A DNA stretch of 41,318 bases, taken from the IMG/VR virus record IMGVR_UViG_3300020045_003089, positions 1 through 41,318 of that record; one strand, written 5' to 3'. The translations under genes were made by a program, and so were the position numbers. Below are positions 7,234 to 33,628 of this stretch, piece by piece. Origin of the DNA: a virus (lineage: Duplodnaviria; Caudoviricetes). Numbering within the stretch: position 1 is the stretch's first letter; each line of letters begins with the position of its first letter. The notes below the pieces were generated by a model. It was not told where the DNA came from, made no database searches, and saw nothing but the letters and a program-made list of their open reading frames with translations.

Positions 7234-7236
7234 GTT

Positions 7237-12094: not shown

Positions 12095-12099
12095 CTTAC

Positions 12100-14940: not shown

Positions 14941-16859
14941 TGGAGACACTACAAGAAATCCAAAGTAAGTACCAAGAATCATTTGAATTTTTAGAAGCTC
15001 GCAAACGAAGGCAAGTAGCCCAATTAGTTCTTCTAAATAATCTAAATCGTGGTGATCAGAATATAGCCTCGACACTTCTAGTTACGCTATTTAATCGTAT
15101 TATGTCTTCTCTCTATGATGATAAGATGCAGATTAAGTTCTTACCATCACAAGGTATTAAGCAACAACAGCTTAACTCGTATAACTCATTAGCTCAGTCT
15201 GATTATCTAGAGATGGGTAAAGCTAAGCTGGATTATGATTGGAACTGGGATTCTTTATTCTTTGGTCGCGGATATATAGAGACACTAAGGTTTAATAAGA
15301 AAAGAAAGATCATGGAGCCAGCAGTTATTAATCCATTAGCTTTTGGTTACGATCCTTATTTTGAAGAAGTTCAGGACTGGCGATATTATTGGAAATGGGT
15401 AACGAAAACTAAATGGGAACTAAAGAAATTAATCAAAGCTAAGGTTATTACTGGTATTAGCGACCCAAGCGAGATTGAGTCTGGTATTGAGGCATACATT
15501 TGGGAATATAAAATCAAAAGAGATCAAGCTAAAAAAGCTGTAGCTCCAGCTAGTGATACTCAAGCAGGAGATGTTTTTCAGATACTTGAATACTATGGCT
15601 ACGATGATAAAGGAGATAAGTGTGTATATTGGATAGATAAAGGCTTCACAAAGATTCTTTTCAAACAGAAGTTAGATCTAATGGACGGTGAGCAAATAGT
15701 CGCCCCCGATGGACAAACCATAGAAACAGGTTCTAAATGGCCTATCGTTATTAAGGAGGCATTTCGCGAGCCCCACTCATCACTTACTTTCTCAGTAGCT
15801 GATTTACTAGAAGATAAACATAGGGCAAAGAATGTTCTACTTAATCTTGCTTTTATAGCCGCTAAAGATAAAGCTAACCCAACCTATTTATATAATCCAG
15901 ATAAAGTTAAAGATTTAACTCAGTTTTTCTCAAGACAAATAAACCAACATATACCAGTAGATGACGTAATAGATGCAGTTGCACCTCTAAACAAAGAGAA
16001 TCCATTAGATCCAGGCCTACTACAGTTTATTACTATGATGCAACAAGAGGCCAACGAACCTTTAGGTACAGGTGTTACATTGCAACCTATGAAGAATAAA
16101 ACTTCTAATACTGCTACCGAAGCATCTATAGACCAACAGTTAAATGACATAGCCCAATCTCTACAATCAAAGGTTATGCAATTTGGTGAGGCTGAGTTCT
16201 GGTCACATTGGTTCCACAGGTATAAGAAGTATGGCCCAGAATTTGGATCAAAGTTATCAAATATAGTTGGGGTCAAGAACATAAAAACAGAGGAAGTAGA
16301 GATGCAAGACTTTCAAACTGAATTCCCACCTGGAGTCCTTGTCTATTCAGCAAAGGAAGCAGAGTTTAAGGAGTTAGTTCTTAGGAGAGATTTAATAAGT
16401 GTTTATCCACAATTAGCTCAAACAATGGGATTAGACGGAATGAGAAACTTTAACAAACATGTATTCATGCCTAAGTTTTTACAAGATCCCTCACTTGTAG
16501 AAATCATGTTCCCAGATACTATAGATGAGATGAAGGCTCAACAAGAGAATGAGCAACTAGCACAAAATCAATATCCTAAAGTAGATGAGACAGATGATCA
16601 CTTATCCCATATCTACACTCATTACTTAACTCAGCCTAAAACTCTAGCCGTATGGTTCCATATTGCAGAGCATGAGAGTTTGTTAGACAAACAAAAAAGT
16701 GCTATGATGCAAGCAGAGCAACAAGCTATGCAAGACCAACAAGGAGAAGGTCCACAAAAAACAAATTCAAAAACTATAAATAAAGAGCGTCTTAATCCCA
16801 AGAGTGCGGCAACGCCTCTTAAAGCGGAGATGCAAAACGCTCAACCAACAACAGCATGA
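14940..16859 (+). CDS. Portal protein (P22-like podovirus type)
   Basis: 639 aa after TerL; WDSLFFGRG, DP, TATE motif, Q-rich C-terminal tail. Confidence 0.88.
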   Translation: METLQEIQSKYQESFEFLEARKRRQVAQLVLLNNLNRGDQNIASTLLVTLFNRIMSSLYDDKMQIKFLPSQGIKQQQLNSYNSLAQSDYLEMGKAKLDYDWNWDSLFFGRGYIETLRFNKKRKIMEPAVINPLAFGYDPYFEEVQDWRYYWKWVTKTKWELKKLIKAKVITGISDPSEIESGIEAYIWEYKIKRDQAKKAVAPASDTQAGDVFQILEYYGYDDKGDKCVYWIDKGFTKILFKQKLDLMDGEQIVAPDGQTIETGSKWPIVIKEAFREPHSSLTFSVADLLEDKHRAKNVLLNLAFIAAKDKANPTYLYNPDKVKDLTQFFSRQINQHIPVDDVIDAVAPLNKENPLDPGLLQFITMMQQEANEPLGTGVTLQPMKNKTSNTATEASIDQQLNDIAQSLQSKVMQFGEAEFWSHWFHRYKKYGPEFGSKLSNIVGVKNIKTEEVEMQDFQTEFPPGVLVYSAKEAEFKELVLRRDLISVYPQLAQTMGLDGMRNFNKHVFMPKFLQDPSLVEIMFPDTIDEMKAQQENEQLAQNQYPKVDETDDHLSHIYTHYLTQPKTLAVWFHIAEHESLLDKQKSAMMQAEQQAMQDQQGEGPQKTNSKTINKERLNPKSAATPLKAEMQNAQPTTA

Positions 16860-17284
16860 GTAACTACGCCCCCCAAATACCAAGAGATACAGGAGGAGCC
16901 CCTAAATATGCGTATGGGCCAGCCAAATTATCTCTAGCTTCGAACAATAAAGAGAATGCCGCTGCTTCCTCGATATTACTATTAAATAACCAGACAACTG
17001 AGATGGAGATTACCCCTACAGCTACCTCGGCTTTTAAGTGGCTATCCCAAACTGTTATAGATTCTTCCGTCGCAGGTACAAGTGTTATTACTATCGCTGG
17101 TAGTTCCAATTTTGATTTTATAGTACCAGCCAATGAGACACGTAGAGTCGTCGTGCCCCAGGTAGTAACATCAAATGAAACAAGTATAGCTGCTGCACAG
17201 CAGAAATTCGGTTTAGCACCAGGATTAGCCATGAAGACCGTAGTAGCTGCTGGCGTGGGTAGTGTACTAACAGTCCAATTATAA
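16856..17284 (+). CDS. Putative virion (decoration-like) protein
   Basis: Ala/Ser/Thr/Val-rich beta protein after the portal; 5 S-[VI] motifs. Confidence 0.65.
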   Translation: MSNYAPQIPRDTGGAPKYAYGPAKLSLASNNKENAAASSILLLNNQTTEMEITPTATSAFKWLSQTVIDSSVAGTSVITIAGSSNFDFIVPANETRRVVVPQVVTSNETSIAAAQQKFGLAPGLAMKTVVAAGVGSVLTVQL

Positions 17285-17286
17285 TT

Positions 17287-17457
17287 ATGGCAAAAAAGAG
17301 TATAAAAGATTTAGATATAATACTTTCTGAGGCAGATGACGTTGAGATTAAGTCACCAAAGAAAGATATATCTCTAATCGATATTAATTTCGGTAGAGAA
17401 GATTTAGACAAGTTGAGGGATAAAATTAACGAGATAATAAATGTCATCAACAAATAA
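17287..17457 (+). CDS. Small hypothetical protein (56 aa, not in ORF track)
   Basis: MAKKSIKDLD...FGREDLDKLRDKINEIINVINK; tight operon spacing. Confidence 0.7.
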   Translation: MAKKSIKDLDIILSEADDVEIKSPKKDISLIDINFGREDLDKLRDKINEIINVINK

Positions 17458-17611
17458 ACAAGACATAGTTACACCGAAGCAGATAGTAGAAGCAAAGAAA
17501 GCTAAAGAGCCAGTTAAACCAGAAAAACCGCATCATACAGGTAAAGGCACGAGAGCTAGACTGAATACTGCAGCAGAAAAGATGTTTTATCAGAGTAAGT
17601 TTTCTAAGTAG
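17441..17611 (+). CDS. Small basic protein (56 aa, not in ORF track)
   Basis: MSSTNKQDIVTPKQIVEAKKAKEPVKPEKPHHTGKGTRARLNTAAEKMFYQSKFSK. Confidence 0.55.
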   Translation: MSSTNKQDIVTPKQIVEAKKAKEPVKPEKPHHTGKGTRARLNTAAEKMFYQSKFSK

Positions 17612-17623
17612 TACCCACAATTA

Positions 17624-17719
17624 AATCCTCGAAGAGATTAGGGGGGCCGATCAGCCTACTAATGGGTTTGTCGAGGATTCCTATTAGTAGGCTACCCGAC
17701 CTCCTTAATGGTCGGTTTT
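17624..17719 (+). ncRNA. Structured intergenic element with pseudoknot and alternative terminator/antiterminator folds
   Basis: 14-bp stem 17653-17666/17680-17693; its loop 17671-17679 complementary to 17624-17632; 17637-17646/17700-17709 competes with CCGACC/GGTCGG-TTTT hairpin 17696-17719. Confidence 0.6.
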
Positions 17720-17766
17720 GCCTTATAGATGGTCGAGTATTAACCAATTAATATAACAATAAAAAT

Positions 17767-18291
17767 ATGGGATTCAGATTACCTTTAAAGACAGTGTTAG
17801 ACGTAAATAATAGTACAGTCAATGCTACCGGCCCAGCTTCAGTAGCAGGCGGAGTTGCACATACATTTACTCTTCCACAAGATGCAGATAGTGTTATCGT
17901 AAAGCTTCAAGCTTCAGTTTTAGCTGGTGGCGTATCGGCTACTCTACAAACTACTGATGACGGTGGTTCAACTTGGTATGATGTTGGTCGAACTAGTATA
18001 GTTTCAAATGCAAATGGAACTACAGCTGATTGGCTCTCAGTACCAGTAGCAGGATTTGGATTCAATTCAACAGTCCAAACCCAAACCAGTGCATTGGGCT
18101 CTACTAATACCGCGATAGCTCTTAATGCTACCGGGTCAGCAGCTGCCTCAACACTTGGTTCAAAGCAACTTTCAGGACTTCCGATGTTGTCTCAGTATGG
18201 TAGGATCTTTCTTAGATATACTAACGCTGTTACGTCTATCTTAAGTGAGAGAGTTACCGTTTCGACAAATAGCCAGTCAGGGAATAACTAA
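17767..18291 (+). CDS. Putative virion protein (beta-sandwich, decoration-like)
   Basis: Ser/Thr/Ala/Gly-rich; LQTTDDGGSTWYDV Asp-box-like motif; 6 S-[VI] motifs. Confidence 0.7.
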   Translation: MGFRLPLKTVLDVNNSTVNATGPASVAGGVAHTFTLPQDADSVIVKLQASVLAGGVSATLQTTDDGGSTWYDVGRTSIVSNANGTTADWLSVPVAGFGFNSTVQTQTSALGSTNTAIALNATGSAAASTLGSKQLSGLPMLSQYGRIFLRYTNAVTSILSERVTVSTNSQSGNN

Positions 18292-18659
18292 TGAATAATT
18301 CAAAAATCGTCGTAAATAGTTTAGAAGAAGATAATGTAAACCCTCACCTAGACCTTGAGAAGAAAAGAGGGGAGATAATACAGGTTATCGAGGCTATTAA
18401 TGGAGTTACCACTAGTGAAGATTGGAGGAAATTAAAAAGACTATTACTTGATGGGGTAGTTATAACCTTAGAAAAGCAATTAGTCAGCGAAACCTCTAAA
18501 TCAGATATCAATTTACCAGAAGTTTATAGGTTACAAGGACAACTCGCCTGGGCTAAAAAATATACAGACCTAAAGAAGTTATCCGAATGGTTTAAGTACC
18601 AAGTAGAAAATATTAACAAACAAATAAATGAACACAACCCGAGGGACGGAGCCCTCTAA
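18291..18659 (+). CDS. Hypothetical helical head-region protein
   Basis: DWRKLK, YRLQGQL; position upstream of the scaffold. Confidence 0.7.
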   Translation: MNNSKIVVNSLEEDNVNPHLDLEKKRGEIIQVIEAINGVTTSEDWRKLKRLLLDGVVITLEKQLVSETSKSDINLPEVYRLQGQLAWAKKYTDLKKLSEWFKYQVENINKQINEHNPRDGAL

Positions 18660-18996
18660 TGCTCCAGTGAATAGAAGATTTCTTGAACGACAGGGTGCGC
18701 AGACAGTTCCATCATCACATCGTTTAGGTGTGATACGAGGTGGTATTTGTGATAAGTGTGGGGTACTCGATCAGAATATCCCATCACAATTTCAGTACCA
18801 ACTATGTGAACACTTTAGAGGTTTAGGAGAAATTAGGTGTAGTTATTGTGAAGACACAGTAAATAACACCGACGTTGTCCTTCACTCTATAATTCATGTA
18901 GCCGAGCATCCAGATAATCCCGATAAGGTGATTGCCTGGTGCAACTCATATGGCTGTTCTGCTAAACACGAAGCTCGCTTCAAAGTAAGCCGATAG
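18628..18996 (+). CDS. Cys/His-rich putative zinc-binding protein
   Basis: CDKC, CEH, CSYC, C....C..KH. Confidence 0.7.
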   Translation: MNTTRGTEPSNAPVNRRFLERQGAQTVPSSHRLGVIRGGICDKCGVLDQNIPSQFQYQLCEHFRGLGEIRCSYCEDTVNNTDVVLHSIIHVAEHPDNPDKVIAWCNSYGCSAKHEARFKVSR

Positions 18997-19088
18997 CTTC
19001 AAATCATGTTTCTTTCTAGTCAAAAGTAAACATCGTAATAAAAGACTAAATCTCAAGATGAGAATCGCCCCTCATGTTGACGTAAAAT

Positions 19089-19559
19089 ATGGCTGAAGAA
19101 TACGATATAGACTTAGATCAGGATGTTGAAAAAGAGCATCCTGTTGATAAAAGATTAACAAAGGCTTTTGAGAAAATAGGTTCTACAGAGAAAGAGCTAA
19201 ACGAAGAAAGGAAGCTTAGAGAAGCGGAAGCGCAAAAAAGTGCTGAGCTTCAAAAGGAAAGAGATTTTTACGCAGGTTTCACCGATATTATATCTACTCA
19301 TCCAGAGGCTAAAGACCATAAGGATGATATCTTAGCGAAAGTTAAGGGTGGATATAGTGTTGAAGATGCAACCTTCGCCGTCTTAGGTAAAGCTGGTAAG
19401 CTCAGTCAGCCCCAACCAATAGTGGATAATCCTGCTGGAGGTGCGGCTACGATTACTCAGACTAGCCAAGGACAAAAAACTCTTGATAGTATGTCTCGTG
19501 AAGAAAAACGAGCTAAGCTTTTAGAAGCAGAGAGTCGTGGTGATATCTCGATGTCCTAA
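19089..19559 (+). CDS. Capsid scaffolding protein
   Basis: Acidic coiled coil directly before the capsid gene; C-terminal MSREEKRAKL helix. Confidence 0.8.
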   Translation: MAEEYDIDLDQDVEKEHPVDKRLTKAFEKIGSTEKELNEERKLREAEAQKSAELQKERDFYAGFTDIISTHPEAKDHKDDILAKVKGGYSVEDATFAVLGKAGKLSQPQPIVDNPAGGAATITQTSQGQKTLDSMSREEKRAKLLEAESRGDISMS

Positions 19560-19579
19560 TTTTCAAAAGTTTTAAAACT

Positions 19580-20665
19580 ATGCCAGTAACAGTAAGAGGC
19601 ACTGGATGGGGTGGCGCAACTACCCTTACATCAGAGCTTTTAACATCATACATCTCAGATGAGATTAAGGTGTTAGAGCCTGAACTCCAGTATGCTAGAT
19701 TAGGTAAAAGGAGAGATGCCCCAAAGGGGTATGACAGAATAGTCTTCCCACAGACTAACCAGGTTCCAGTTAGAATTAATGTATCTATGGCCACCACAGG
19801 TGGACCAACTGCCGTAGCCGGTGGTGGTTCTGTCTGGGGTGCTACAGGTTCAATCCAAGGAGGTGCAACAGCTACTGCTCCTGGATTCCCAGTATCATCT
19901 ACTGAAGGTGTCGCCGCTATAACAGAAGGAACAAACCCGTCTTCAATAACATGGGGTGCTACTTCATATAGCTCAGGCCCTGCTCAGTATGGTATCTTGA
20001 TTCAGATTTCCGACCTTTTAGTTCATAACTCAGCTATCGAGACCATTGATGCTTGCACTATGCAAGTTAGAAATGCTCTTGCTAGATTAGTTGATACTTG
20101 TCTTCAGACCGTAGCAAACGGTGGAACTAATGGTGTTGTATATTCAGGCAATAAGACCACAAGAGCTAGTCTTGGTTCAGGAGACACTATTGCTCAATCA
20201 GATATGAATAGAGCATATAAGATTCTTGCATCTTCAAACGCTGCAGGTGCTAAGTATTTCGATGGAAATTACTTTGCCGCAGTGATCCACCCACAAGTAG
20301 AATCAGACCTTATGTCTAATACTGCTTCAGGATCATTTGTAGATGTCGGCAGATATACTTCTGTTGATGACCTAAGATCAGGTAAAATGGGAGATTATAG
20401 AGGTATTAGATACCTTAGAAGTGCATACCAGAATTACTTCAACTCAACAGTTGCAGTATTTCCAACCACTGTCTTAAGTGCTGATTCATTTGGATGGGGC
20501 TACTTCCAACCACCAACTCCAACTTTAGTTACGACTCCAGATTCTAATAATGCTTTGAACCTTTACACTTCAATCGGAGGTAAAGTCACTCTTGGTGCTA
20601 CTAGATTCGAAGACAGTATTGGTACTGTCAGAATCGCTAGGGTTGAGTCAGCAATAACTAACTAA
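19580..20665 (+). CDS. Major capsid protein (HK97 fold, N4-gp56-like family)
   Basis: PKG..IVFP, ITEG..P, QYG...ISD, AVIHPQV..DL, G.YRGIRY. Confidence 0.9.
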   Translation: MPVTVRGTGWGGATTLTSELLTSYISDEIKVLEPELQYARLGKRRDAPKGYDRIVFPQTNQVPVRINVSMATTGGPTAVAGGGSVWGATGSIQGGATATAPGFPVSSTEGVAAITEGTNPSSITWGATSYSSGPAQYGILIQISDLLVHNSAIETIDACTMQVRNALARLVDTCLQTVANGGTNGVVYSGNKTTRASLGSGDTIAQSDMNRAYKILASSNAAGAKYFDGNYFAAVIHPQVESDLMSNTASGSFVDVGRYTSVDDLRSGKMGDYRGIRYLRSAYQNYFNSTVAVFPTTVLSADSFGWGYFQPPTPTLVTTPDSNNALNLYTSIGGKVTLGATRFEDSIGTVRIARVESAITN

Positions 20666-20714
20666 TAATTAGTTTCCTCAGAGCCTTTATAGGCTTTGGG
20701 CTAAATTAATTATT
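20663..20714 (+). terminator. Hairpin/putative terminator after the capsid gene
   Basis: TAATAATTAGTTT..AGAGCCT-TTAT-AGGCTTT..AAATTAATTATTA inverted repeat. Confidence 0.65.
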
Positions 20715-20721
20715 AAATAAC

Positions 20722-21420
20722 ATGGCCGTACTATTATCTGATGTCCTAGCATTTGCCAGAACCCAAGCCCAAACTGATTCCAATGGTATAACTGATGCCA
20801 ATGGTATTATATTTGCAAATGAAGCCCTTTCAGACTTTAGAAGAAGACTTGTAGATACTGGCGTTGATGCAGGAACAGTGACTGAGTTTGTCCAAGAAGG
20901 TACTGTGGGAACCGGTATATATACTTATCCTACAAACCCTAGCGTTCTATTCCTTAAGACAATAGAGCTAAACTATGTAAACACTACCCCAGCCGACAAG
21001 GTGACGGCTACGCAACTTGATGTGTCTAATCTCCCCGCTAATAAATCCGTAGGTTGGATAAGAGCTAATGCTAGCCCATCTAGCCCGTATTACGATGATA
21101 GGGGTGATAGATATGAGATATTCCCTACACCAACAGCCGCACATAATGTGACTTCAATAGCCACACTCTTCTATTTTGCTAAGCCTAATGACTATACCGC
21201 CGTCGCAAATTCTATCGCCTATCCCGAAACGCTCGACTACAGAATACTAGGATGGAGGATTGCCTCTAATTACCTATATTCGCTCGGCAAGGTAGAGGAG
21301 GGATCAATAGTAAACCAAAGATACGAGGAGAGAGTTAAACAATTAATAGCCACACTATCTCGAGGAAGCCAACAGCCTATCCAGGCTACCCCAATACAAG
21401 ATAGTGGTTGGGGTTACTAA
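20722..21420 (+). CDS. Head-tail adaptor-like protein
   Basis: After the MCP; FANEAL helix, GTVGTGIYTYP, EIFPTP, Y..KP pattern. Confidence 0.72.
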   Translation: MAVLLSDVLAFARTQAQTDSNGITDANGIIFANEALSDFRRRLVDTGVDAGTVTEFVQEGTVGTGIYTYPTNPSVLFLKTIELNYVNTTPADKVTATQLDVSNLPANKSVGWIRANASPSSPYYDDRGDRYEIFPTPTAAHNVTSIATLFYFAKPNDYTAVANSIAYPETLDYRILGWRIASNYLYSLGKVEEGSIVNQRYEERVKQLIATLSRGSQQPIQATPIQDSGWGY

Positions 21421-23036
21421 TGCCACAAGAAGTAAAGACAATCACTGTTACAAACTTTGGAGGGCCGTTAACCCGTAAAGATGACGGGGATATTGATAGT
21501 GGTTTAGCAAAGTTTGATACTTCATGGGGTTACGACCCCTATTCTAAACCAGGTGAATTAACATGGTTTGAGCAACCTACAAGCATACTAAGCCTTTCGG
21601 CTGATAATGGTCCTGTAGTAGCTATGAAATCTAGGTCAGAGAGTGGCGAGAATATAGTTTATGCTGTCGCAAGGACAACGTCATCTCCAAAGCTCTATAG
21701 GATTGAAGTAAACGATAATAGCACGTCTAACCCAAACTTTGACACCGCATCGGTCATTAGTACACTTACACCTTTGGATAGCCTCTTTGATGCAGATATG
21801 GTTTTCTATGGCTCAACTGAAAAGATATTCTTTAAAGGTGATGGTAGAGTAGGTAAGGTTAATTTTAATGGGTCTTCTCCAACTTCAATTGCTGGGGCTA
21901 CTGATTTTAATGGTAATGGGGGGACATTGTTTTTAGGTAATATATTCTTTGCTAATAATAATAATATAGCAAAGATCGACTCTACGGAGCTACTAGTAAA
22001 TTCTTCTGTCTTAAGTCCAGCTCTTCCTAAAGGTCTCACAGTACGAGATTTAGATGTCACACCTGATGGTAATTATCTTCAGATCACCGCTTCGAGGTTA
22101 TCTAATCAGAATCAATTTAATGGCGCAGCTATAGATGTTAGCTCATCAAATGCAGTAGACTCATATAAATATTATTGGAATGGCATTGACAGTGGCGCAA
22201 CTGCTACTGAAACTTTTGAGGGGTTAGCTTTAACAGCTAGTCAAACATTTCAAGGTAAGAACTATGGTTTTGGCTATGACCTTAATGGCGCAGGTATTTA
22301 CGATGGTTCCCAAAAAACTATAACTCTCTCTAAATCTTGGTCTCCACAAAAGAATGCTACGTTCTCTATAGGTAATGTGCTAGGTTTTGTGACCCCAGAG
22401 TATGAAGAAGCAAATACGCGTTTTACAGCCTCTATATTCTTTAATGGACAGTATGACGAAGAGACACCTAAGGGACTATTCCGACTACTTCGGCACCCAG
22501 CTCAGATTAATGATGACATTGTTTCAATACCCGCTGCATTGCCCGTATCAAATCTTCTCTATGTACCGAGAATCTATGACTATGCTAATAATATCGGCGG
22601 AAGATCTAAAATCTATTACTCTACAGTAGAAGAGAATGATGATTCACCGTCAGGTAGGCTAAATAAGCTATGGCGATTTGAGACTAAACCTACTGGTCAA
22701 GGAAGTGTTGTAGCTGGAGTATATGAGACACAAACTCAAATGTTCTCAAAGAAAATGGCTGTTAAAGAGATACGCCTCTACACTGAACCTCTGAAAGCTA
22801 ATAACGATTTTATAATCGATTTAATAGGTTCAGGTGGTAGTGTCATGGCAAGTGGTAGTCAAAGGTTTGTTGTAGGTGCAAGTAGTATCGCTACGGGAGC
22901 TGATGTTGTTATGTGGAATCCTGGTATAGCACCAACATATGCATTAGGAGTAAGGATTACGAATTCATCTGTCACAGGAAGTGCTAACTGGACAGCTAAA
23001 AAACTTGAGATAGATGTCGTACCAGGCGGTAAATAA
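21420..23036 (+). CDS. Tail nozzle / stabilization-like beta-propeller protein (start probably 21420)
   Basis: ~540 aa beta-rich; N-terminal NFGG, C-terminal YETQ..K..KEIRL; follows the adaptor. Confidence 0.68.
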   Translation: MPQEVKTITVTNFGGPLTRKDDGDIDSGLAKFDTSWGYDPYSKPGELTWFEQPTSILSLSADNGPVVAMKSRSESGENIVYAVARTTSSPKLYRIEVNDNSTSNPNFDTASVISTLTPLDSLFDADMVFYGSTEKIFFKGDGRVGKVNFNGSSPTSIAGATDFNGNGGTLFLGNIFFANNNNIAKIDSTELLVNSSVLSPALPKGLTVRDLDVTPDGNYLQITASRLSNQNQFNGAAIDVSSSNAVDSYKYYWNGIDSGATATETFEGLALTASQTFQGKNYGFGYDLNGAGIYDGSQKTITLSKSWSPQKNATFSIGNVLGFVTPEYEEANTRFTASIFFNGQYDEETPKGLFRLLRHPAQINDDIVSIPAALPVSNLLYVPRIYDYANNIGGRSKIYYSTVEENDDSPSGRLNKLWRFETKPTGQGSVVAGVYETQTQMFSKKMAVKEIRLYTEPLKANNDFIIDLIGSGGSVMASGSQRFVVGASSIATGADVVMWNPGIAPTYALGVRITNSSVTGSANWTAKKLEIDVVPGGK

Positions 23037-23037
23037 T

Positions 23038-24387
23038 ATGACACAAGAAGATATAAAACAACTTATTCTTGATACGATAAAAGAGTATAACAAGGCTGGT
23101 GTCTTTACTGACCGTAAAACTATAGATACTCCTACAGATGCTTTATCCCCAGTAAATAAGAAATATATTGATGATTTAACTTTTAATGATTTAGCTGATG
23201 TTACAATTACTTCAGGTGCTCAAGGCGATTTAATCTATTGGAATGGAAGTGCATGGGTAAACTTGGCCCCTGGAGAAAATGGACAATTTCTAAAAACTCA
23301 AGGTTCTGGGTCTAATCCTATCTGGGATGATGTTGCACTATTTGGGGATGCTTCAGATGGTAACGCGAGTATTACTGGAGCGACTACTCTATCGAGGGAT
23401 ATGTTCTATGACGACCTAACTATTAGTAGCGCAGGGATTTTAAATACTGCTAGTTTTAGGATTTTTAGCAATAATTTACTTAATAACGGTATTGTAAGAA
23501 ATAACGGAAATAATGGTTTTAATGGAGAAAATGGGAAAACTAATGATATATCTGAGGGTCCAGCCGACGGAGGAGCGGGCGGTGCATCAGTGGTGTCAGG
23601 TTCACTATCGGGCGGTCTTAGTGGAGTAGCAGGGGGAAATGGTGGCTTAGGAGTTTCTGCTGATACGGTTGGTAATACTGGTTCAAATGGTGTTGCTGGA
23701 GCTACTGTAACTAAAGGACTTGGAGCAATAGGTGGTGGCAAAGGTTCGGGAGGAGCATCATCAATTTTAGGTAATGGCGGTTCAGGTGGAATTGCTGGAT
23801 CGGGTAAGGCGGCAGGTGGTGGTGGTAGTGGCGGAGGAGAAGGATCAAAATCAGGCACTGTGTTTAATGCTCCTAGAACATTTCCTAGTGCTTACTTTCT
23901 TATGGATACTCAGCCATCAATAGTAACTCTAAATGTATCTGCTGGCTCCGGTTCTGGGGCTGGTGGTGGATCAGGCGGTGGTGCGGTAGGCGGAGGTGGC
24001 CACTCAGGTGGTGGTGGTGCAGGAGGAGGAAGCGGATCACCAGGGGGAATAGTAGCTATATTCTCAAGGAATATCACTAACAATAGTAGTATTCAATCTC
24101 TCGGTGGGAACGGAGGTAATGGTGGAGATGGTGGAGATAGTGTAAACACTGGATCTCAAGCTCATGGTGCTGGTGGCGGTGGTGGTGGAGGTTCAGGTGG
24201 TTCAGGGGGAGTAGTAATTTTACTTTATCGAACTCTGACAAATAATGGTATAATATCTGCAGCTGGTGGATCTGCTGGATCAGGTGGGAGTGCTGGAACT
24301 ACAGCTGCTAACGCTAGTGTTGCAAGTGATGGTAGAAGCGGTTCAGTAGGATACACAGGTTCAGTATTTTCAATTCAACTTTCTTAA
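23038..24387 (+). CDS. Glycine-rich tail/fibre protein (start probably 23038)
   Basis: LADVTI...GDLIYWNGSAWVNL, FGDASDG, long GGxGG tracts. Confidence 0.8.
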   Translation: MTQEDIKQLILDTIKEYNKAGVFTDRKTIDTPTDALSPVNKKYIDDLTFNDLADVTITSGAQGDLIYWNGSAWVNLAPGENGQFLKTQGSGSNPIWDDVALFGDASDGNASITGATTLSRDMFYDDLTISSAGILNTASFRIFSNNLLNNGIVRNNGNNGFNGENGKTNDISEGPADGGAGGASVVSGSLSGGLSGVAGGNGGLGVSADTVGNTGSNGVAGATVTKGLGAIGGGKGSGGASSILGNGGSGGIAGSGKAAGGGGSGGGEGSKSGTVFNAPRTFPSAYFLMDTQPSIVTLNVSAGSGSGAGGGSGGGAVGGGGHSGGGGAGGGSGSPGGIVAIFSRNITNNSSIQSLGGNGGNGGDGGDSVNTGSQAHGAGGGGGGGSGGSGGVVILLYRTLTNNGIISAAGGSAGSGGSAGTTAANASVASDGRSGSVGYTGSVFSIQLS

Positions 24388-24388
24388 T

Positions 24389-26257
24389 ATGGCAACTTAC
24401 GACTATACAAAATACAGCAAAGTTAAAAGCCCGACTGGGTATGATATCTATGAGGGTTCAAATAAACTCTCTTATGAGCAAGCCAAGCCGATGTTTTCAT
24501 CGGGCTTTAATGTTGATTTTATTAAAGAGGGCCCAGCCCCACAGGCTATAAGTCCAACTCAACCAATATCTCAACCGCAAAGTCAAATGCCCACAGGTGC
24601 TCCTGCGAGTATGCCAGCGCAAACAGGCTTAAGTAAGGTATCAACTCAAGGCGTGGGTCCTGATGGTAAACCTATCTATGATGTTTTTGCAGGTCAAGAA
24701 CATATTCAGGATCCTAATGATCCTAGACTAAAGGGCGTGAACATAGATCACTTGCCAGTAGGCCAAGCTCCTCAAGGATTTAAGAGTAAATTCCAGGAGG
24801 GTTTTGAAAAAGCTCAGGGTGCTGGCTTAGGTAACGTATCGGATGCAAGTCAAGGGAGAAAAGTAGTCTCTGACTACACTGAACTAAAGAACGATACAAA
24901 GGCTCTGGGATTCTTACAAGGCGATGAATTTTTTACCAATCTCACTAAAACATTCCAGGAGTTCACTAACCCTATAAATCAGAGAGCTTCTCTAGCTGAT
25001 ACATATAGCCAGATGATAAAGGACTCTGGTATTGAGGCTATGGATATGGAGCTTATTAACACTAAGAATATTATTGAAGGATCAGAGGAAGATATTAGAA
25101 CAGAGATTACCAAAGCGGGCGGTTTTGCTACGGAGTCCCAGGTACTAGCTATGACAAACTCCCGTAATAAGCAGTTGATTAAGAATTACAACACACTCTT
25201 AGATACTAGAAATGCTAAGGAGAAATATTTAGATACATTAATTGGATTAGAGTCACAAGACAGAGAAGCAGCCGATCAGAGATTCGAGCAAGCCTTTAAT
25301 ATGCAGATGCAAATAGCAGACTATGGCATAAAGATGCAGAAGAATGCCGTTGACGGGATAAGTCGTCTAAAAGATACGATCGGTTGGAGCGGTATTTATG
25401 AAGCTACCCAGGGCGACCCCTACGCCGTGTCTCTAATAGAAAAAGCTTATGGCCTACCAAGCGGAGGCTTAACTATAGCCGCACAGCAAGATTACGACGC
25501 ACAATATCAAGCTGAGATAGATAGATCATTCGAACTTGAGGAAAAGAGTCTTGGAATAGCTAACCTAAAGAGCCAGATAGCAGATAGAGGGATTCAAACC
25601 GAGTTAGACAGAAGACGTACTGAAAGCCAACTCGCTACAGACGCAGCACAAAGGAATAAGATATATAACGACATAAATAAATCTATGTCTACCGGTCAAC
25701 CAGTTGTAATATCAGCCACTAACCTAGAAGATACAAAGAATAATCTATCTACCTTATTTTCAAGTGATAGTATACCAGCAGCATTAAGAGGTCAGGCAAG
25801 TAAAGCATTAAATATAGTTAATAAGCTCAATGAAATGGTTAAAGATAACCCAGGAGGTAATTTTGCTGGGGGTAGATTTAGAAGTGCCTTAGCTCCATTT
25901 ATACCTGGTAGTCTTGAGCCAAAGTTCCAGAAATTAAAAGCAGATGAAGCTAAGATAAGACAAGATTTAGTCACATATATAACTGGTGCAGCCTACACTA
26001 ATTTACAGGCTGATGATGTAAACAAGTTAATACCTAGAAGCCAGCTATATGATGGCCAGAATAGAGAAAGAATAAACAACCTTGCCAATACAATCATGGG
26101 TGATCTTGAGGCGGGCCTTATCGCCTCTGGAGTAAATGCTCAGTTACCAAGGTTTAATGATTTATTTAGTCTAAGTAGTGATGAAGTTAATAACCTGATG
26201 AATCAACTTTCCCCAGACCAAAAGGTACTATTACAAAGTTCTGGTCTAATTAAATAA
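24389..26257 (+). CDS. Internal virion / DNA-ejection-like protein
   Basis: 622 aa, Q/A-rich helical, podoviral position. Confidence 0.6.
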   Translation: MATYDYTKYSKVKSPTGYDIYEGSNKLSYEQAKPMFSSGFNVDFIKEGPAPQAISPTQPISQPQSQMPTGAPASMPAQTGLSKVSTQGVGPDGKPIYDVFAGQEHIQDPNDPRLKGVNIDHLPVGQAPQGFKSKFQEGFEKAQGAGLGNVSDASQGRKVVSDYTELKNDTKALGFLQGDEFFTNLTKTFQEFTNPINQRASLADTYSQMIKDSGIEAMDMELINTKNIIEGSEEDIRTEITKAGGFATESQVLAMTNSRNKQLIKNYNTLLDTRNAKEKYLDTLIGLESQDREAADQRFEQAFNMQMQIADYGIKMQKNAVDGISRLKDTIGWSGIYEATQGDPYAVSLIEKAYGLPSGGLTIAAQQDYDAQYQAEIDRSFELEEKSLGIANLKSQIADRGIQTELDRRRTESQLATDAAQRNKIYNDINKSMSTGQPVVISATNLEDTKNNLSTLFSSDSIPAALRGQASKALNIVNKLNEMVKDNPGGNFAGGRFRSALAPFIPGSLEPKFQKLKADEAKIRQDLVTYITGAAYTNLQADDVNKLIPRSQLYDGQNRERINNLANTIMGDLEAGLIASGVNAQLPRFNDLFSLSSDEVNNLMNQLSPDQKVLLQSSGLIK

Positions 26258-26261
26258 AAAT

Positions 26262-27738: not shown

Positions 27739-27752
27739 ACCCAATATATACA

Positions 27753-28382
27753 ATGTTAAATCAACCAAGTCAACCTAATAATCCACAGCGAAGGCCACGA
27801 GATATAGTGGCTGGTTTAGCACAAAAGACTCAACAAGTCCTACGTAGACCAAAGGAGATTGTTTCTGGCTTACTTAACACCAAGATGTCTACTGTTAATC
27901 AACAGCTAGACCAAGTTCCAGTCTTAGGCCAGGTAAGACAATTCAATCAGAAATATATAAATCCACCTCAACCTCAACAGGATAAAGTCTTTAACATGGC
28001 CACTAACTTTGGCCCAGCAAGCATGGGGAAGATTGCTCCAAAAGCTATGAATCGTATAGGAGAACTTTTACCAGAAGAAAAAATATTACCAGGAATTAAA
28101 AGTACACTTAAGAATCTCGGAGGACTCGTAAGTAAGGCTAGTAAAGAACAAGCTGATGAACTAATGGAACTATCTAATAGATTGAGAAGAAAGAACTGGT
28201 CTGCGGAAGATTTAGAATATGCAGAAAATCTAGTTAGAAACAATACTCCTCAGAGATTAACTAAGGGATTTACAATTGAAAGATTAGGTCAGGCTAAAGA
28301 TAATACGGTAGAAAAATTAAAAGAGTTCTATGGCAAAACTAGAAGAGGTTTTGGCACAGGAGCTGGCAGAGGTAAAAAATGA
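27753..28382 (+). CDS. Hypothetical (possible ejection-related) protein
   Basis: 209 aa, Q/P/K-rich. Confidence 0.6.
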   Translation: MLNQPSQPNNPQRRPRDIVAGLAQKTQQVLRRPKEIVSGLLNTKMSTVNQQLDQVPVLGQVRQFNQKYINPPQPQQDKVFNMATNFGPASMGKIAPKAMNRIGELLPEEKILPGIKSTLKNLGGLVSKASKEQADELMELSNRLRRKNWSAEDLEYAENLVRNNTPQRLTKGFTIERLGQAKDNTVEKLKEFYGKTRRGFGTGAGRGKK

Positions 28383-28383
28383 C

Positions 28384-28659
28384 ATGGAATTAAACGACCA
28401 GTTTACAATATTAACTGCAATAGCTGGTATCATCACTGGTTTTTTCGCTCTAGTGAGGTACATAGTCTCAAAAGTGGGTGGTATGCATAAAGAGTTATTA
28501 GATCATTTGGAGAAGAAAAATGGTATTATTGAGAGAATATCAAAGGAATTTTCACATACACTCTCAGAGACTATGAGAGAAAATAATCTAGCTATAAATG
28601 GCATGAAAAAGTCGGTAGATGAACTTAATTTATCTTTAGTAAAAAAAAAGTTAAAATAA
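28384..28659 (+). CDS. Single-TM plus coiled-coil protein (holin/spanin-like; start probably 28384)
   Basis: FTILTAIAGIITGFFALVRYIV followed by a coiled coil. Confidence 0.6.
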   Translation: MELNDQFTILTAIAGIITGFFALVRYIVSKVGGMHKELLDHLEKKNGIIERISKEFSHTLSETMRENNLAINGMKKSVDELNLSLVKKKLK

Positions 28660-28663
28660 TACT

Positions 28664-28996
28664 ATGAACCCAGAAGAACTACAACAAGATATGACTCCAG
28701 ATGAATCAGCGGCTGTTCTGAGCCTTATTACTGAAATGAGCCAGGGATTGATGCCACAAGCTCCCCAGGATGACGCTCAAGGCTCTATTATTGCCCCAGG
28801 TGAAGAGATGCCACAAAAACAGGGTAATATGGCACAGAAAAAGAAAGAACCTACTGTAGAGCCAGATAACGACGAAGAAATGGGCGAGGAATTAGAATCC
28901 ATTAAAGACGAGATAGCCTCATTAAGAGACGAGATTAAAGAAGCTTTAAGTGAAACTTCAGAAGAAACAGAAGAAGAAAAAGCCGATGGCCAATAA
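28664..28996 (+). CDS. Acidic hypothetical protein
   Basis: 110 aa, E/D-rich. Confidence 0.65.
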   Translation: MNPEELQQDMTPDESAAVLSLITEMSQGLMPQAPQDDAQGSIIAPGEEMPQKQGNMAQKKKEPTVEPDNDEEMGEELESIKDEIASLRDEIKEALSETSEETEEEKADGQ

Positions 28997-30722
28997 AGAT
29001 AAACTAAAATTATTATTAGATAAGTTAAGTGAGCTAGAGAATTCCTTACCAGGAGGAGAAGTTTTAGGTATGGCGGATAGGATTATAGATGAGAAATACA
29101 AAGAGATAACCTCTAAGGTAAAAGAAGACTCGTCTATTAAGATGTTAGGCGAGATAAGCGGTAAGATTAACCGATTTAAGAGAGATTTTAATCTTAAGCC
29201 TATTCTAAAGCAGTTAGATGATTTTCAGGCGCTATTTGATCAGATGCACGAGTCTATTGTCTCTCAATTTGAGGAGACATCGCAGTCATCAGAAAACACT
29301 AGAAACGAGCTGGAAAGTCTTATAAAAAGTTCTAGCGAGAATTTGACTAAGATGACAGCTAAAGAATTAAAAGCTGTTCTGCAAAGGCTCGATAGCCTAG
29401 AAAATCAATTCTCATTTGAAAGCGAAGGCTCTAAGAATGACAAAAAGAGCCTTAAAGAAGTCATCGATGGACTAGAAAGTAAACTTACTAGCCTAGTAGA
29501 TGATTTTAAAAAATCCAGTACCGAGAGCCAGGGTAATAGAGCAGATATTGAATCAAGACTAAAAGAACGTGGCGAATCCATCACTAAGTTACAAGAAGAG
29601 CTAGAGACATTACGCAAAGACACTATGTCCAAAATAGCAGGTCTTGGTGGCGGAAGTATGAATCGACAGATTAATGTCAATTCTTCTGTCATGTCTTCTA
29701 AGTATACGGATATTAACTTCCAACAAGGAGGTAATATTGGCTGGTCAGTATCAGATGACGACACTAATAAAAGAGTGAATATACGAGCGTCAATCCTAGC
29801 AGGAGGTGGCGGAGCGGGAACACCTGGCGGTAATAATACGGAAATTCAATTTAACGATGGCGGTAGTTTTGGTGGAGCTTCAGTTCTAGGTTGGGATAAA
29901 AATGCTTCTATATTATCACTTGGTAGTGGTTCAGCTAGGAAATTCCAGATATTAGCTAGGGGAGGGACAAATGACCAAGTATTACATTTATGGAATTCCA
30001 GTGTCACATCTACTTTTATATTTCAAGTTACGGGTCCAGCCTCTAGTGATACTAATACTGGTAAGGCCTTCGCTTTCATTGTTGAGGGTGATGCAAACGC
30101 TAGAGGTGCATTCTATACTGATGGGAAATATGGTATGGGACCAGGTTCTGCTACTAGAGATGTTTTTTTCTCGAGACCAGCAGGTGGTACTTTTAGAATT
30201 TCTAGTGATGCTGTTCTAGGTGGTGCTAATCTTCATGTAACATCGAGTATCGCAACTGGAGTTCAAGGTTCAGTAACTGGAGCCTTAGTCTTTAATGGTA
30301 GGACCAGTCAAAATGTTAAAATACAACCAGCTTCAATAGCGGGCAATTGGACTCTTACCTTACCGAGCGTTGCGGGTAGTACGGGTCAATATCTTCAAAC
30401 CGATGGCAATGGTACCACTCAGTGGGCTTCGGTAGCTTCAGGTGGGGTTAGTCGTACCGTCAGCGTTCTGTCAGTCAGCTCCACTCTAGCGGCCAGCGCT
30501 GGAGTGGATTATGTTTTCTTCCCAAATGTTGGCATTAATTTAACTCTACCGACAGCTATTAGTAACACTAATAGATATTCTATTAAGAATATGTCGGCTT
30601 CCAGTATTTTAGTCTCAGCAGCTACAGGTCAAAATATTGATGGTAATACAGATATAGTTCTTTCAACTCAATATGCAGCGGTCGACCTAATGAGTAATAA
30701 CAGTGTTTGGGGAATATTCTAA
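28986..30722 (+). CDS. Tail fibre-like protein: N-terminal coiled coil plus beta-rich fibre (start probably 28986)
   Basis: GTPGGNNTEIQFNDGGSFGG, LTLP..AG..GQYLQTDGNG..W, LTLPTA...RYSIKN fibre repeats. Confidence 0.8.
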   Translation: MANKDKLKLLLDKLSELENSLPGGEVLGMADRIIDEKYKEITSKVKEDSSIKMLGEISGKINRFKRDFNLKPILKQLDDFQALFDQMHESIVSQFEETSQSSENTRNELESLIKSSSENLTKMTAKELKAVLQRLDSLENQFSFESEGSKNDKKSLKEVIDGLESKLTSLVDDFKKSSTESQGNRADIESRLKERGESITKLQEELETLRKDTMSKIAGLGGGSMNRQINVNSSVMSSKYTDINFQQGGNIGWSVSDDDTNKRVNIRASILAGGGGAGTPGGNNTEIQFNDGGSFGGASVLGWDKNASILSLGSGSARKFQILARGGTNDQVLHLWNSSVTSTFIFQVTGPASSDTNTGKAFAFIVEGDANARGAFYTDGKYGMGPGSATRDVFFSRPAGGTFRISSDAVLGGANLHVTSSIATGVQGSVTGALVFNGRTSQNVKIQPASIAGNWTLTLPSVAGSTGQYLQTDGNGTTQWASVASGGVSRTVSVLSVSSTLAASAGVDYVFFPNVGINLTLPTAISNTNRYSIKNMSASSILVSAATGQNIDGNTDIVLSTQYAAVDLMSNNSVWGIF

Positions 30723-32803
30723 TGGCATTACTTTATAGAGGAATAGATACAATGGGTCTTACGAAAGACTTAATGCGACAAGCTGATCCTACCACTCGAA
30801 TGGACAACCATTTAGGTACTATTCATACTGACTTTCCGACAGTTAACTTAATAGGTATCTCATTTGTAAATAACACTCAGGCTGAGACTGCAACTGCCGG
30901 TGTATCAGCTTTTAACGAGGAACCCTGGACTCGTAAAAATAGGTGGATGGATAAAATCCATGCTCTTGGGATGAATGTATTAGATAGAGCAACAGATTGT
31001 ACATTCGAGGGTTTATACGATTTTTCAAAAGTCGATAGACGAAATGGAAATAGATATACCTATTTTGCTACACCTATAACAGATAATTTTGATTCAGATG
31101 CGAGTCGTGACCATGGCTATGGCTTAACTTCAGCGGCTGGTAATATCTCAACTAATTACTTGACCTCTCACCAGGCAAGTAATAGTTGGTCCATAGTCTC
31201 AGATGAACTTACGGGTCCAGCGGCTAGTGGTTGGGTAAGGACAATTCTTTTTAATGCAAATAATCTAGGGAATTTAACAGCCACGGCTCTAGTTAAAAAA
31301 GTTGGACATCAGCAGTTAGTAATCAGAGCAACTACCGATTCGAACTTTCCTGGCTATGGTTTACAGATGAGAGATACAAATGTTCTCCGTATCGAAAGAC
31401 CTGGCTTAGCTAGTCTAGGCGAAGTCCCAAAAACTTGGGTATCAGGTGAATATTATTGGTTAAAACTCCAAGCGATTGGGTCAGCTATTAAGGGGAAAGC
31501 TTGGGCAGCTGCATCTGGAACAGAAACTTTTGAAGCAGGTCAACTAACAGAACCTGGTACTTGGGATATAGAGGTTACGGACACAACCTATCCAAGCACT
31601 GGGACACGATATGTAGGATTTTCTGGTGAGTCTGATACTGGTAAATTTAGATATCTATATATCAAACCTGAAAAAGACTCAAATACATGGTTGGCTCGCT
31701 ATTTAGATAAAGTTGTCGAGAATATGAGCCATTATCAATCTGGCGATATCCTATCACCTTACCCAGAAGCAACAGCTCACTACCCCCTAACTAATGAGGG
31801 TACATATGTTAGATTTTTTTCTGATGTCAATTACTGTGTTACAAGACTAGGGGTGGAAAATGGGAAAACCTTAAAGGGTGGATTTGTTGGTCATCTGTTC
31901 ACTGCCGCTCTACAGGGTACTTTTAATTCTCTTTATACAACCGTTGGAACAGCTACTTATGACCACTATGGAACATCAATAGGAAGAGGAAAAGTTTTTG
32001 GTTCATTCTCTAATGATAGTGGAGCGGCGGGAACACAAACCTACACTGTCCCTACCTCTATCACCGAGGATGCTACTAATAGGCAAGACTTCATACCAGA
32101 AAAAGTAGCCTATAATAAACAGATAAGAGTTAATGTGACTGATAAGGGTACTGGTAGTTTGACTATGACTATACATGGTCCCGACGGAAACCCTGTTAAA
32201 ATGTACGACAATACTGACCTGTCTATATCTAATAATAGCTATCAAGCAACTATAACTAATGGCAATTTAGTAGTTGGATGGAATGACTTTTTAATTGATT
32301 GGGTAAACTTAGATACTGACCAAACACACCACTTCCATTTAACATCTTCAGACGGAACAGTGGTTGTAAAGACGACAACTGCGGGTGATCTAAATACTTG
32401 TTCCTGTATTGGCTATAAGTGGCATGCCACACCCGAAGCTTATGAGATTGACATTAGAAACATGTATCTAAAAAGTGGAGTCCCTCAGTTTATTCAGGAA
32501 TGGGGGGATTACTGGTCAACTAATGCTTCCCTAACTGATCCAGTATTAGATGAAGCAGAACATACACAGTATCTAACTGACTTCTATACAATGTTACAGA
32601 GATTAGTTGACGACGGGATTTTGGTTGGGTTTAATTACTGGAGATCAGGCTTTGGCGTAGAGGGTATATATAACAACGCTTCCGGCCCTGGTTATACCTA
32701 TACTCTCCAGTATAATGGAGAGCCATTGCAAGACTTCTTTAATGCTAATACTGAGATTCCGCCCGACGTAGTGATAAGTTATTTTGCTTTTGTTTTTTCG
32801 TAA
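30722..32803 (+). CDS. Tail-associated glycoside-hydrolase-like protein with inserted beta-sandwich domains (start probably 30722)
   Basis: GIDTM..TKD, W.DKIH..G.NV..R, PYPE, FIQEWGDYW, LVGFNYW resemble a clan GH-A barrel; lectin-like insert YWLKLQAIGSAIKGKAW. Confidence 0.55.
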   Translation: MALLYRGIDTMGLTKDLMRQADPTTRMDNHLGTIHTDFPTVNLIGISFVNNTQAETATAGVSAFNEEPWTRKNRWMDKIHALGMNVLDRATDCTFEGLYDFSKVDRRNGNRYTYFATPITDNFDSDASRDHGYGLTSAAGNISTNYLTSHQASNSWSIVSDELTGPAASGWVRTILFNANNLGNLTATALVKKVGHQQLVIRATTDSNFPGYGLQMRDTNVLRIERPGLASLGEVPKTWVSGEYYWLKLQAIGSAIKGKAWAAASGTETFEAGQLTEPGTWDIEVTDTTYPSTGTRYVGFSGESDTGKFRYLYIKPEKDSNTWLARYLDKVVENMSHYQSGDILSPYPEATAHYPLTNEGTYVRFFSDVNYCVTRLGVENGKTLKGGFVGHLFTAALQGTFNSLYTTVGTATYDHYGTSIGRGKVFGSFSNDSGAAGTQTYTVPTSITEDATNRQDFIPEKVAYNKQIRVNVTDKGTGSLTMTIHGPDGNPVKMYDNTDLSISNNSYQATITNGNLVVGWNDFLIDWVNLDTDQTHHFHLTSSDGTVVVKTTTAGDLNTCSCIGYKWHATPEAYEIDIRNMYLKSGVPQFIQEWGDYWSTNASLTDPVLDEAEHTQYLTDFYTMLQRLVDDGILVGFNYWRSGFGVEGIYNNASGPGYTYTLQYNGEPLQDFFNANTEIPPDVVISYFAFVFS

Positions 32804-32824
32804 AAATAGTATAATTATATAAAT

Positions 32825-33628
32825 ATGGCATACGATCCATTTCCATTAGGCCAAAAACCTATGAGTTCATCCAGAGGTGTAGTAATAGCCTCTGACCAAT
32901 CACCAGTATCAGTAACTGGTACTCTTTCAGTTTTAGGAACCGTCCCTACAACTCAAAGCGGTATTTCAATCACTTCGATGTTCAGCGTCACCCCATCGAG
33001 TGTCCAAGTTGGAGCCTCTATATTCGGTCAACTACCAGGTGGTACTGCGTTATTAGGTTCAGTCGCTGTATTACAAGGAACTAATCCTTGGAATATTAGT
33101 TCTATCTATGGAAACATAGGTGGCTCGGTACTTTCTCAACAAATGGGTACTCGTACTACATCAGTCGTTGGTAGTATCCCTTCAAGCCTACTTACTGGCA
33201 ATTATGGCTTTAGAAACGATAACGTCGCCTCTTTCTTGGGAGGTAATCTAAGTTGGAATCAGATCGCCACCGATTCGGCAGGAAGGACACTTTCAAAACC
33301 TTTCGCAGCTGAAGAAGCAAGAGTTGAAGGTTATCATTCGGTCGTTAGTACGAGCGTGACTACCTTAGTTGCTGCGGCTGGAACAGGATTAAGGAATTAT
33401 ATAACTGATTTCTTTATTGTAAATAGTGGAGGCGTAACTACACCTATAACCTTTCAAGACGGGGCAGGTTCTATACTAGGTTATACAATCGCTCCAGCCT
33501 ATGGAGGTTCAAATGCAACTAATATTACTACCCCCATTAGAACAGGTGCCAACGCAAGTTTTGACTTCGTGCCTACCTTTGCGTCTTCGATAATTTATGC
33601 AACGGTAAAAGGATATAAAGCACCCTAG
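32825..33628 (+). CDS. Ser/Thr/Gly-rich virion protein
   Basis: LGQK.M..S..VVIASDQS, QGTNPW, LVAAAGTGLRNYITD; 15 S-[VI] motifs. Confidence 0.75.
   Translation: MAYDPFPLGQKPMSSSRGVVIASDQSPVSVTGTLSVLGTVPTTQSGISITSMFSVTPSSVQVGASIFGQLPGGTALLGSVAVLQGTNPWNISSIYGNIGGSVLSQQMGTRTTSVVGSIPSSLLTGNYGFRNDNVASFLGGNLSWNQIATDSAGRTLSKPFAAEEARVEGYHSVVSTSVTTLVAAAGTGLRNYITDFFIVNSGGVTTPITFQDGAGSILGYTIAPAYGGSNATNITTPIRTGANASFDFVPTFASSIIYATVKGYKAP

Follow-up and report, generated by a model that had tools for sequence, protein, structure and literature searches.

The 41,318-nucleotide virus record IMGVR_UViG_3300020045_003089 (Duplodnaviria; Caudoviricetes), analysed here as a whole and called the window, encodes TerL, a portal and adaptor of the SU10 type and a major capsid protein, a gene content by which the phage is podovirus-like. 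An earlier reading of its letters, the original prediction, held that the exterior virion proteins share a recurrent motif, [G/A/S/T/P]-Ser-[Val/Ile], and that this is the acceptor site for a cluster of glycosyltransferase (GT) genes at 3759-12870. We find that the S-[V/I] motif is real and occurs at about twice the chance frequency in the named virion proteins. Judging from its conservation in relatives, the fuller form [AGST]-Ser-[Val/Ile]-hydrophobic-[GST] is on balance probably an O-glycosylation acceptor, carried at many sites on the virion and served by soluble enzymes of the phage itself.

Together the seven named proteins contain 69 S[VI], where 35.3 +/- 5.1 are expected, and none of 2000 composition shuffles gave a count as high. 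Ten exterior-type proteins chosen by annotation contain 81 (45.0 expected), and all remaining window proteins contain 58 (61.1 expected), which is no excess. No other of the 400 dipeptides ranks above SI or SV in either exterior protein set. The excess persists under local shuffling of 10 or 20 residues (81 versus 50.5 and 47.9, reached by none of 400 shuffles). It is absent in the exterior set for the mirror dipeptide [VI]S (39 versus 51 expected) and for T[VI] (45 versus 46). Our recount agrees with the hand counts made for the individual proteins (16, 15, 11, 10, 6 and 5, with 6 in the capsid, 3 in TerL and 1 in the 622 amino acid (aa) protein), except that the portal has three sites rather than about two. 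The low counts in portal and TerL, offered as a contrast, are nearly right but partly reflect composition, serine making up 10-13% of the motif-rich proteins and 5% of portal and TerL. The expected enrichment over shuffles likewise holds for the pooled proteins, but only three of the seven pass singly: the C-terminal part of 28986..30722 (p=0.0002), 32825..33628 (p=0.0004) and 17767..18291 (p=0.04), the others failing p<0.05. The 698-aa and LamG proteins of the window show no S[VI] excess.

The motif serines use all six serine codons, which bears out the earlier remark on codon variety and rules out a DNA repeat as the source. TCN and AGY codons are both found at conserved sites, but both also occur at non-motif serines and so single out no sequon. 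N-linkage, allowed for in the original prediction, is unsupported because N-x-S is at the chance level (20 versus 18.1 expected) and Asn seldom stands at -2 (none of nine conserved sites has it in more than 6 sequences). With N-x-[ST] at 40 versus 32.3 (p=0.08), we rejected N-linked N-x-S/T glycosylation of the HMW1C/NGT-like type. Proline as a permitted -1 residue also has to be dropped, its family-wide count being that of chance (40 versus 42).

The fuller motif is present family-wide in de-duplicated homolog sets. Ala, Gly, Ser or Thr precedes the serine, Leu or Ile follows at +2 (Leu 169 versus 59) and Gly, Ser or Thr at +3 (Gly 308 versus 107). Counts of S[VI], observed over expected, come to 196/90 for homologs of the 142-aa protein, 172/107 for those of the 174-aa protein and 207/97 for those of the 267-aa protein; portals have 180/165 and TerL proteins 133/125. 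The homologs are not independent, so these counts show conservation and not separate events. At least a 1.5-fold excess of [AGST]S[VI] is found in 15 of 18 near-complete relatives (80-100% complete or full-length: G001-G010, G020-G023, G026, G027, G029, G030), with mirror ratios of 0.33-1.54; ratios that use the [AGST] and +2/+3 positions are inflated for this family, from which those positions were derived. Among 38 held-out exterior-type proteins without a window homolog (22 clusters), three clusters are in excess (103/63, 31/14 and 14/5). Across five protein families, 14 motif serine columns surpass their flanks more than 60 other serine columns do (p=0.005). These results support an ordered, serine-specific motif under protein-level selection across unrelated folds, as originally proposed, with an excess that survives local shuffling and is conserved in relatives.

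A set of conserved sites lies in the major capsid protein, in a loop with a family-specific insertion of about 40 residues. The closest outside capsid proteins (53, 45, 42 and 39% identity) lack these residues between the FPQ and EG anchors. The insertion varies in length within the family, yet G-S84-V is kept in 63 of 67 sequences and S91-[IV] in 64 of 67. Of the 62 loops that could be parsed, all 60 family loops carry two to four S[VI], the extra sites falling at lineage-specific places, and two outgroup loops carry one each. By HK97-fold anatomy we take the insertion to lie in the exterior E-loop; the capsid has no true sequence match in the PDB, and the outgroup capsid profile gives a match to solved capsids (E 9e-7) that is unreliable across the loop. 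In a single case among the 67 sequences (L190) S84 is replaced by Cys, a residue that some GT2 peptide transferases accept.

Two small proteins encoded between the portal and capsid genes, a position that fits a predicted exterior role, carry further conserved sites. In the 142-aa protein the motif serine is kept at four sites in 63, 61, 56 and 62 of 63 homologs, and is replaced by Thr in none, while the flanks are only 0.51-0.62 conserved; one of these serines sits in a gappy loop. The 38 homologs aligned to the window protein share 26-53% identity with it. Predicted models of the 142-aa and 174-aa proteins (pLDDT 81 and 74) are both small jelly rolls. In VIA comparisons the former matches the HFTV1 turret and PM2 spike (Z 7.1-7.4), and the latter XepA (Z 9.8) and phage cement proteins (Z 6.7-7.1), a range that may reflect only the common jelly roll; Foldseek gave the 174-aa model no PDB match at E<=0.001. 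In L190 the 142-aa gene is duplicated in tandem, with four motif sites per copy.

The putative nozzle differs in that its sites turn over between lineages. It has 0-9 [AGST]S[VI] per sequence among 43 homologs, the window protein having the most, and most of the 155 sites (106) are in alignment columns that no more than 20% of the 43 sequences use. Homologs of the 267-aa protein range from 193 to 831 aa, with up to 43 sites, and their stalks are partly tandem repeats.

The GT cluster consists of 11 sugar genes upstream of the terminase, and lies beside the terminase in most relatives. None of the 11 enzymes has a predicted membrane span (maximum hydropathy 1.21, compared with 1.96 for a control), and a family scan of the window found no flippase or oligosaccharyltransferase. 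GT2a, GT6 and GT11 occur in 18 of 18 near-complete relatives, even where the cluster has moved, split or inverted; GT2b, GT11b, DUF3431 and GT17 occur in 17 of 18. DUF3431 has no solved relative. Other sugar genes vary between relatives, including GDP-mannose dehydratase, dTDP epimerase, FkbM and C-methyltransferases, a GT47-like gene and radical SAM, which suggests that the outer glycans may diversify. Genes for HNH-type endonucleases have entered the cluster repeatedly (5184..5747 in the window, and in relatives), and several relatives encode a Cpn60-family chaperonin between cluster and terminase (L061:16388-17947, L076:17310-18845 and similar open reading frames (ORFs) of about 510-520 aa before TerS). 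We also considered that the GTs might hypermodify DNA, and rejected this: Pfam and PHROGs scans of 50 ORFs detected neither a base hydroxymethylase or oxygenase nor a phage DNA polymerase, though about half of the ORFs are family-less and could include a remote enzyme.

Much of the cluster is also found outside this phage family. The huge phage LR756502.1 encodes GT6, DegT, GT2b, DUF5672, DUF3431, GT11b and GT17, arranged much as in the window; in cyanophage S-B05 the block lacks DUF3431 and GT6. In their exterior-type proteins [AGST]S[VI] shows no excess, at 131/132 in LR756502.1 (30 proteins, 17,517 aa, from 640 of 642 kb) and 78/85 in S-B05 (36 proteins, 15,402 aa, from 200 of 209 kb). The cluster alone therefore does not predict the motif, and only a family-specific part of it can be the reader. 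Neither phage has a close GT2a, the match in the LR756502.1 cluster region being a partial one of 24.7% and the S-B05 region having none. GT2a is thus by exclusion the best candidate for the initiator. A scan for it gave 32 loci. Among ten records followed up, five have the family capsid, G031 has the family cluster and TerS, G032 and L318 have GT2 domains at 34-38% identity without scorable exterior proteins, and G034 has one at 24% (8/4.7). All close orthologs that could be placed are in family phages, and the best 120 homologs are on contigs of at most 44 kb.

The proposal that the cluster writes the motif thus stands in part: a soluble cluster accompanies the motif family in 18 of 18 relatives, but most of it occurs in two phages without the motif. 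LR756502.1 and S-B05, which lack a close GT2a, show other patterns, T-G-S and G-A-T in the first and T-G-V/I in the second. In LR756502.1 the exterior-type proteins L254, L256 and L275 have a strong excess of T-G-S, G-A-T and G-S-Q (93 versus 27; 94 versus 18), partly in collagen-like repeats. As the prediction would have it, the cultured GT-less phages Pascal (7/9.0) and Kumquat (16/14.1) show no excess; however, no GT-less member of the family itself is available for comparison. The complete 40-kb outgroup phage G024, with GT4-type and other GT2-type genes, has [AGST]S[VI] at 6/11.4; those genes lie between its adaptor and fibre genes (L155:10647-12453), and its excess is of S-G and G-T, not S-V/I. 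Two sister phages, L164 and L165, share the virion module and have genes of the GT4 type next to the terminase; their decoration homologs are rich in Thr and hold 0-1 S[VI], and L164 shows no excess (3/3.4).

We therefore offer the following scheme as a proposal. A family-specific enzyme, most probably GT2a, would add the first sugar to motif serines in the cytoplasm while the phage grows lytically. The portable block (GT2b, DUF5672, GT11b, DUF3431, GT17, DegT, epimerases and methyltransferase) would extend the glycan stepwise from nucleotide sugars, and GT11 and GT6 would extend and cap it. The coat would cover capsid loops, decoration proteins and fibre stalks and leave receptor-binding-type domains bare. 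Two conserved sites per capsid subunit and three to five per small jelly-roll protein would give hundreds to more than 1000 glycans per particle. A more specific version, which we put forward tentatively and regard as doubtful, makes the capsid insertion a dedicated platform displaying Ser-Val/Ile acceptors, with a swappable initiator GT2 reading the sequon. The glycan would then be extended by the cassette that unrelated huge phages and cyanophages, in which other motifs are seen, also have, and GT11 with GT6 could, from the activities of their families, give it a blood-group-like fucose/N-acetylgalactosamine end.

Several observations weigh against an O-glycosylation acceptor, in addition to the inflation of family ratios noted above. 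S[VI] has no family-wide excess in the adaptor (27/37.8) or nozzle (68/73.3), the whole capsid alone has 6 versus 4.7 expected (p=0.32), and 19 of the 22 held-out clusters show no excess, among them large receptor-binding-like proteins of 536-765 aa. Thr replaces the serine in 28 of 140 cases in pooled motif columns and 259 of 945 elsewhere, which is not clearly rarer. The motif was expected in exposed loops, and in the models S71, S76 and S110 of the 142-aa protein and S77 of the 174-aa protein are in loops, but S39 and S136 of the former and S42, S50, S91 and S157 of the latter are at or in beta-strands. Three relatives have little [AGST]S[VI] excess, about 1.2 (G026 15/12.1, G008 14/11.2, G022 24/20.1), their sites being only or mainly in the capsid loop, where they are kept. 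The best solved relatives of GT2a among 46 solved sequences are chain-extending enzymes (chondroitin synthase, E 7e-43; GalT1, E 6e-31). It also matches GmaR (4e-13) and SunS (4e-10), which are GT2 protein or peptide transferases, but it is far closer to the former pair, so that these matches show only a GT2 fold. The ratios in L165 (9/5.7) and G016 (10/6.7) are above 1 but not significant, and an outgroup, L120, has 7/2.2 in 256 aa. The motif is present in G011 (31/17.9), whose 60%-complete record shows no GT gene; at the usual position of the cluster this record has a 691-aa protein without a Pfam match (L170, L079:888-2960). None of the 18 near-complete relatives lacks GTs, so there is no within-family control and motif and cluster may share one origin; judged on these genomes, the link between them rests on about one origin and the contrast is not clean.

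The motif could instead be a structural signature combined with shared ancestry, turn-Ser-Val/Ile-hydrophobic starting strands or packing subunits while the GT cluster acts elsewhere, with repeat expansion multiplying it in the 267-aa family. We consider this rather unlikely, though several features speak for it: the sites at strand starts, the two hydrophobic residues after the serine, the partly tandem stalks, and capsid S261 and S331, which match the motif yet look structural (N/D swaps; a conserved strand). An S-V is moreover already present in L120 and in 5 of 10 outgroup capsid loops inspected, and G026 possesses the enzymes but no genome-wide excess. On the other hand, at least five protein families with no relation to one another have this ordered motif, as does a gappy Gly-rich loop, and Thr, which is also strand-friendly, never occupies the four sites of the 142-aa family. 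The 174-aa homologs of L164, L165 and G022 keep the sequence family of the fold with 0-1 S[VI], the nozzle sites turn over, and there is no excess in the virion-type proteins of four other phages, about 41,000 aa in total.

If the serines are an enzyme-read tag, the writer may not be GT2a but GT6, DUF3431, GT17, a host cytoplasmic GT, or an enzyme of phosphorylation or acylation. The tag-like features are independent of the writer, GT2a is assigned by exclusion only, and the strength of the motif does not track its identity (G026, 60%, weak; G023, 49%, strong). We nevertheless hold another writer to be improbable, as homologs of GT6, GT2b, GT11b, DUF3431 and GT17 occur in LR756502.1 without the motif, neither a kinase nor an acyltransferase was detected among the 50 window ORFs scanned (Pfam, PHROGs), and an 11-gene sugar cluster adjoining the packaging genes needs an acceptor. 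Chance, or a post-hoc choice of proteins and dipeptide, can draw on the three of seven proteins that pass singly, on the 400 dipeptides open to choice and on the 124 versus 110 S[VI] obtained with one representative per held-out cluster. It is largely refuted by the family-wide excess and the near-invariant serines, findings that recur in held-out families and across dozens of relatives with 30-70% identity, and we regard it as very improbable. The features discussed are listed in Table 1.

Table 1. Features of the window that bear on the serine motif and the glycosyltransferase cluster.
Feature	Position	Strand	Remarks
GT6 glycosyltransferase (PF03414)	3759..4568	+	in 18/18 near-complete relatives
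GT2 'GT2a' (PF00535), candidate initiator by exclusion	4568..5251	+	close orthologs found only in window phage family
GT11 (PF01531)	5747..6325	+	in 18/18 near-complete relatives
Nucleotide-sugar/elongation block: NAD-dependent epimerase, GT2b (7237-7854), DegT aminotransferase, RmlD-like reductase	6310..9533	+	
Methyltransferase-DUF5672 fusion, GT11-like ('GT11b'), DUF3431, GT17	9520..12870	+	also in LR756502.1; in S-B05 without DUF3431
142-aa small jelly-roll protein, predicted spike/turret-like	16856..17284	+	5 S[VI]; S39, S76, S110, S136 near-invariant
174-aa jelly-roll protein, predicted cement/decoration-like	17767..18291	+	6 S[VI]; conserved S25, S50, S77
Major capsid protein	19580..20665	+	phrog_1357; 6 S[VI]
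Capsid residues 56-116, loop with ~40-aa Gly/Ser/Thr/Ala-rich family-specific insertion; G-S84-V, S91-I	19745..19927	+	exterior E-loop position predicted
SU10-type adaptor (PF24175)	20722..21420	+	5 S[VI]; no family-wide excess
538-aa putative nozzle, by position	21420..23036	+	11 S[VI]; 9 [AGST]S[VI], lineage-specific
Gly-rich fibre-like protein	23038..24387	+	10 S[VI]
Charged N-terminal part and 355-aa fibre-like C-terminal part	28986..30722	+	N-terminal part 3 sites (chance); C-terminal part 16 versus 6.6
267-aa protein, length-variable motif-rich N-terminal stalk	32825..33628	+	15 S[VI] versus 5.7

The phage belongs to a large uncultured family. Homologs of the 174-aa protein number 828 at 90% clustering, a scan with TerL found 56 loci that are 67-86% identical, and the portal has no match among cultured phages. 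In the portal tree, which was drawn open, the family node has support 83/98; single-protein scans yielded five outgroup records. The only GTDB matches are small contigs in two unrelated metagenome-assembled genomes. The 45 starts inspected by eye are all ATG with A/T-rich leaders and no Shine-Dalgarno site. A 321-aa ORF of G026 (at 25089) and a 930-aa ORF of G022 contain A-T-S-T / A-S-S-T repeats of a kind found in Patescibacteria genomes; together with the starts they are a weak hint of a Patescibacteria-type host group. A 225-aa window protein (2592..3269, + strand) that matches two unknown PHROGs has about 20 N-terminal Cys-Asp/Tyr-Ser/Tyr triplets (CDSCDY-like), and looks like a metal-binding or pentapeptide-like repeat protein.

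Virion glycosylation has been documented in a few mycobacteriophages, at protein termini; no report of a phage capsid sequon was found in the literature searched, most subscription journals and supplements lying outside its coverage. What the window contributes is an insertion in the capsid protein, serines that hardly vary, and a division of the sugar genes into a shared cassette and a GT2 specific to the family. If the acceptor reading is right, a multi-site internal sequon and a purpose-built capsid loop would make glycan-coated virions a normal design in a large uncultured family, and glycoengineering would gain a tool in a short Ser sequon read in the cytoplasm and the transferase that goes with it. 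Capsid S84 and S91 and S39, S76, S110 and S136 of the 142-aa protein, with one small soluble enzyme, form a testable pair. Should the capsid loop be a platform as well, virion sequons could be read from sequence and matched to writers across uncultured phages.

Bacteroidota O-glycosylation, to which the motif had been likened, uses D-[S/T]-hydrophobic with Asp at -1, noncytoplasmic substrates and a lipid carrier, as outlined in PMC12871550. Both patterns have a hydroxyl residue followed by a hydrophobic one, often Val or Ile, but here the -1 residue is A/G/S/T, Thr is not used, the substrates are virion proteins and no enzyme is membrane-bound. Asp precedes only 3 of 77 S[VI] sites in eight proteins and D[ST][AILVMT] occurs about as often as chance gives (10 versus 9.6 expected), so that the analogy fails and a sequon of this type was ruled out. 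The Maf flagellin systems, as described in PMC12645811, perform stepwise, lipid-independent O-glycosylation in the cytoplasm with no recognised sequon. In stepwise systems soluble enzymes put monosaccharides straight onto a structural protein whose gene is linked to theirs. The soluble GTs and nucleotide-sugar enzymes linked here to structural-protein genes resemble such stepwise systems, and the ordered candidate sequon sets them apart from Maf.

In mycobacteriophages Che8, Corndog and Myrna the capsid and tail-tube subunits carry the glycans at their C-termini (Freeman et al. 2023, as reported in PMC12363180 and PMC12619734). Organism tallies for GT17, GT6, GT2a, DUF3431 and GT2b over 50,697 phage records include no mycobacteriophage, a result that bears on Che8 gp110 and Corndog gp38 by sequence comparison only. 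The window system seems by analogy somewhat more probable than otherwise to be a multi-site, O-linked variant of mycobacteriophage-type virion glycosylation. Both have phage-encoded GTs (here two GT2, GT6, two GT11 and GT17, conserved in relatives) and cytoplasmic assembly with capsid or tail proteins as substrates, here candidate ones. Unlike in the mycobacteriophages, the candidate sites here are many and, where conserved, internal (S84, S91), perhaps with a further one at the C-terminus, follow one sequence pattern across folds, and are accompanied by an 11-enzyme cluster with its own nucleotide-sugar genes.

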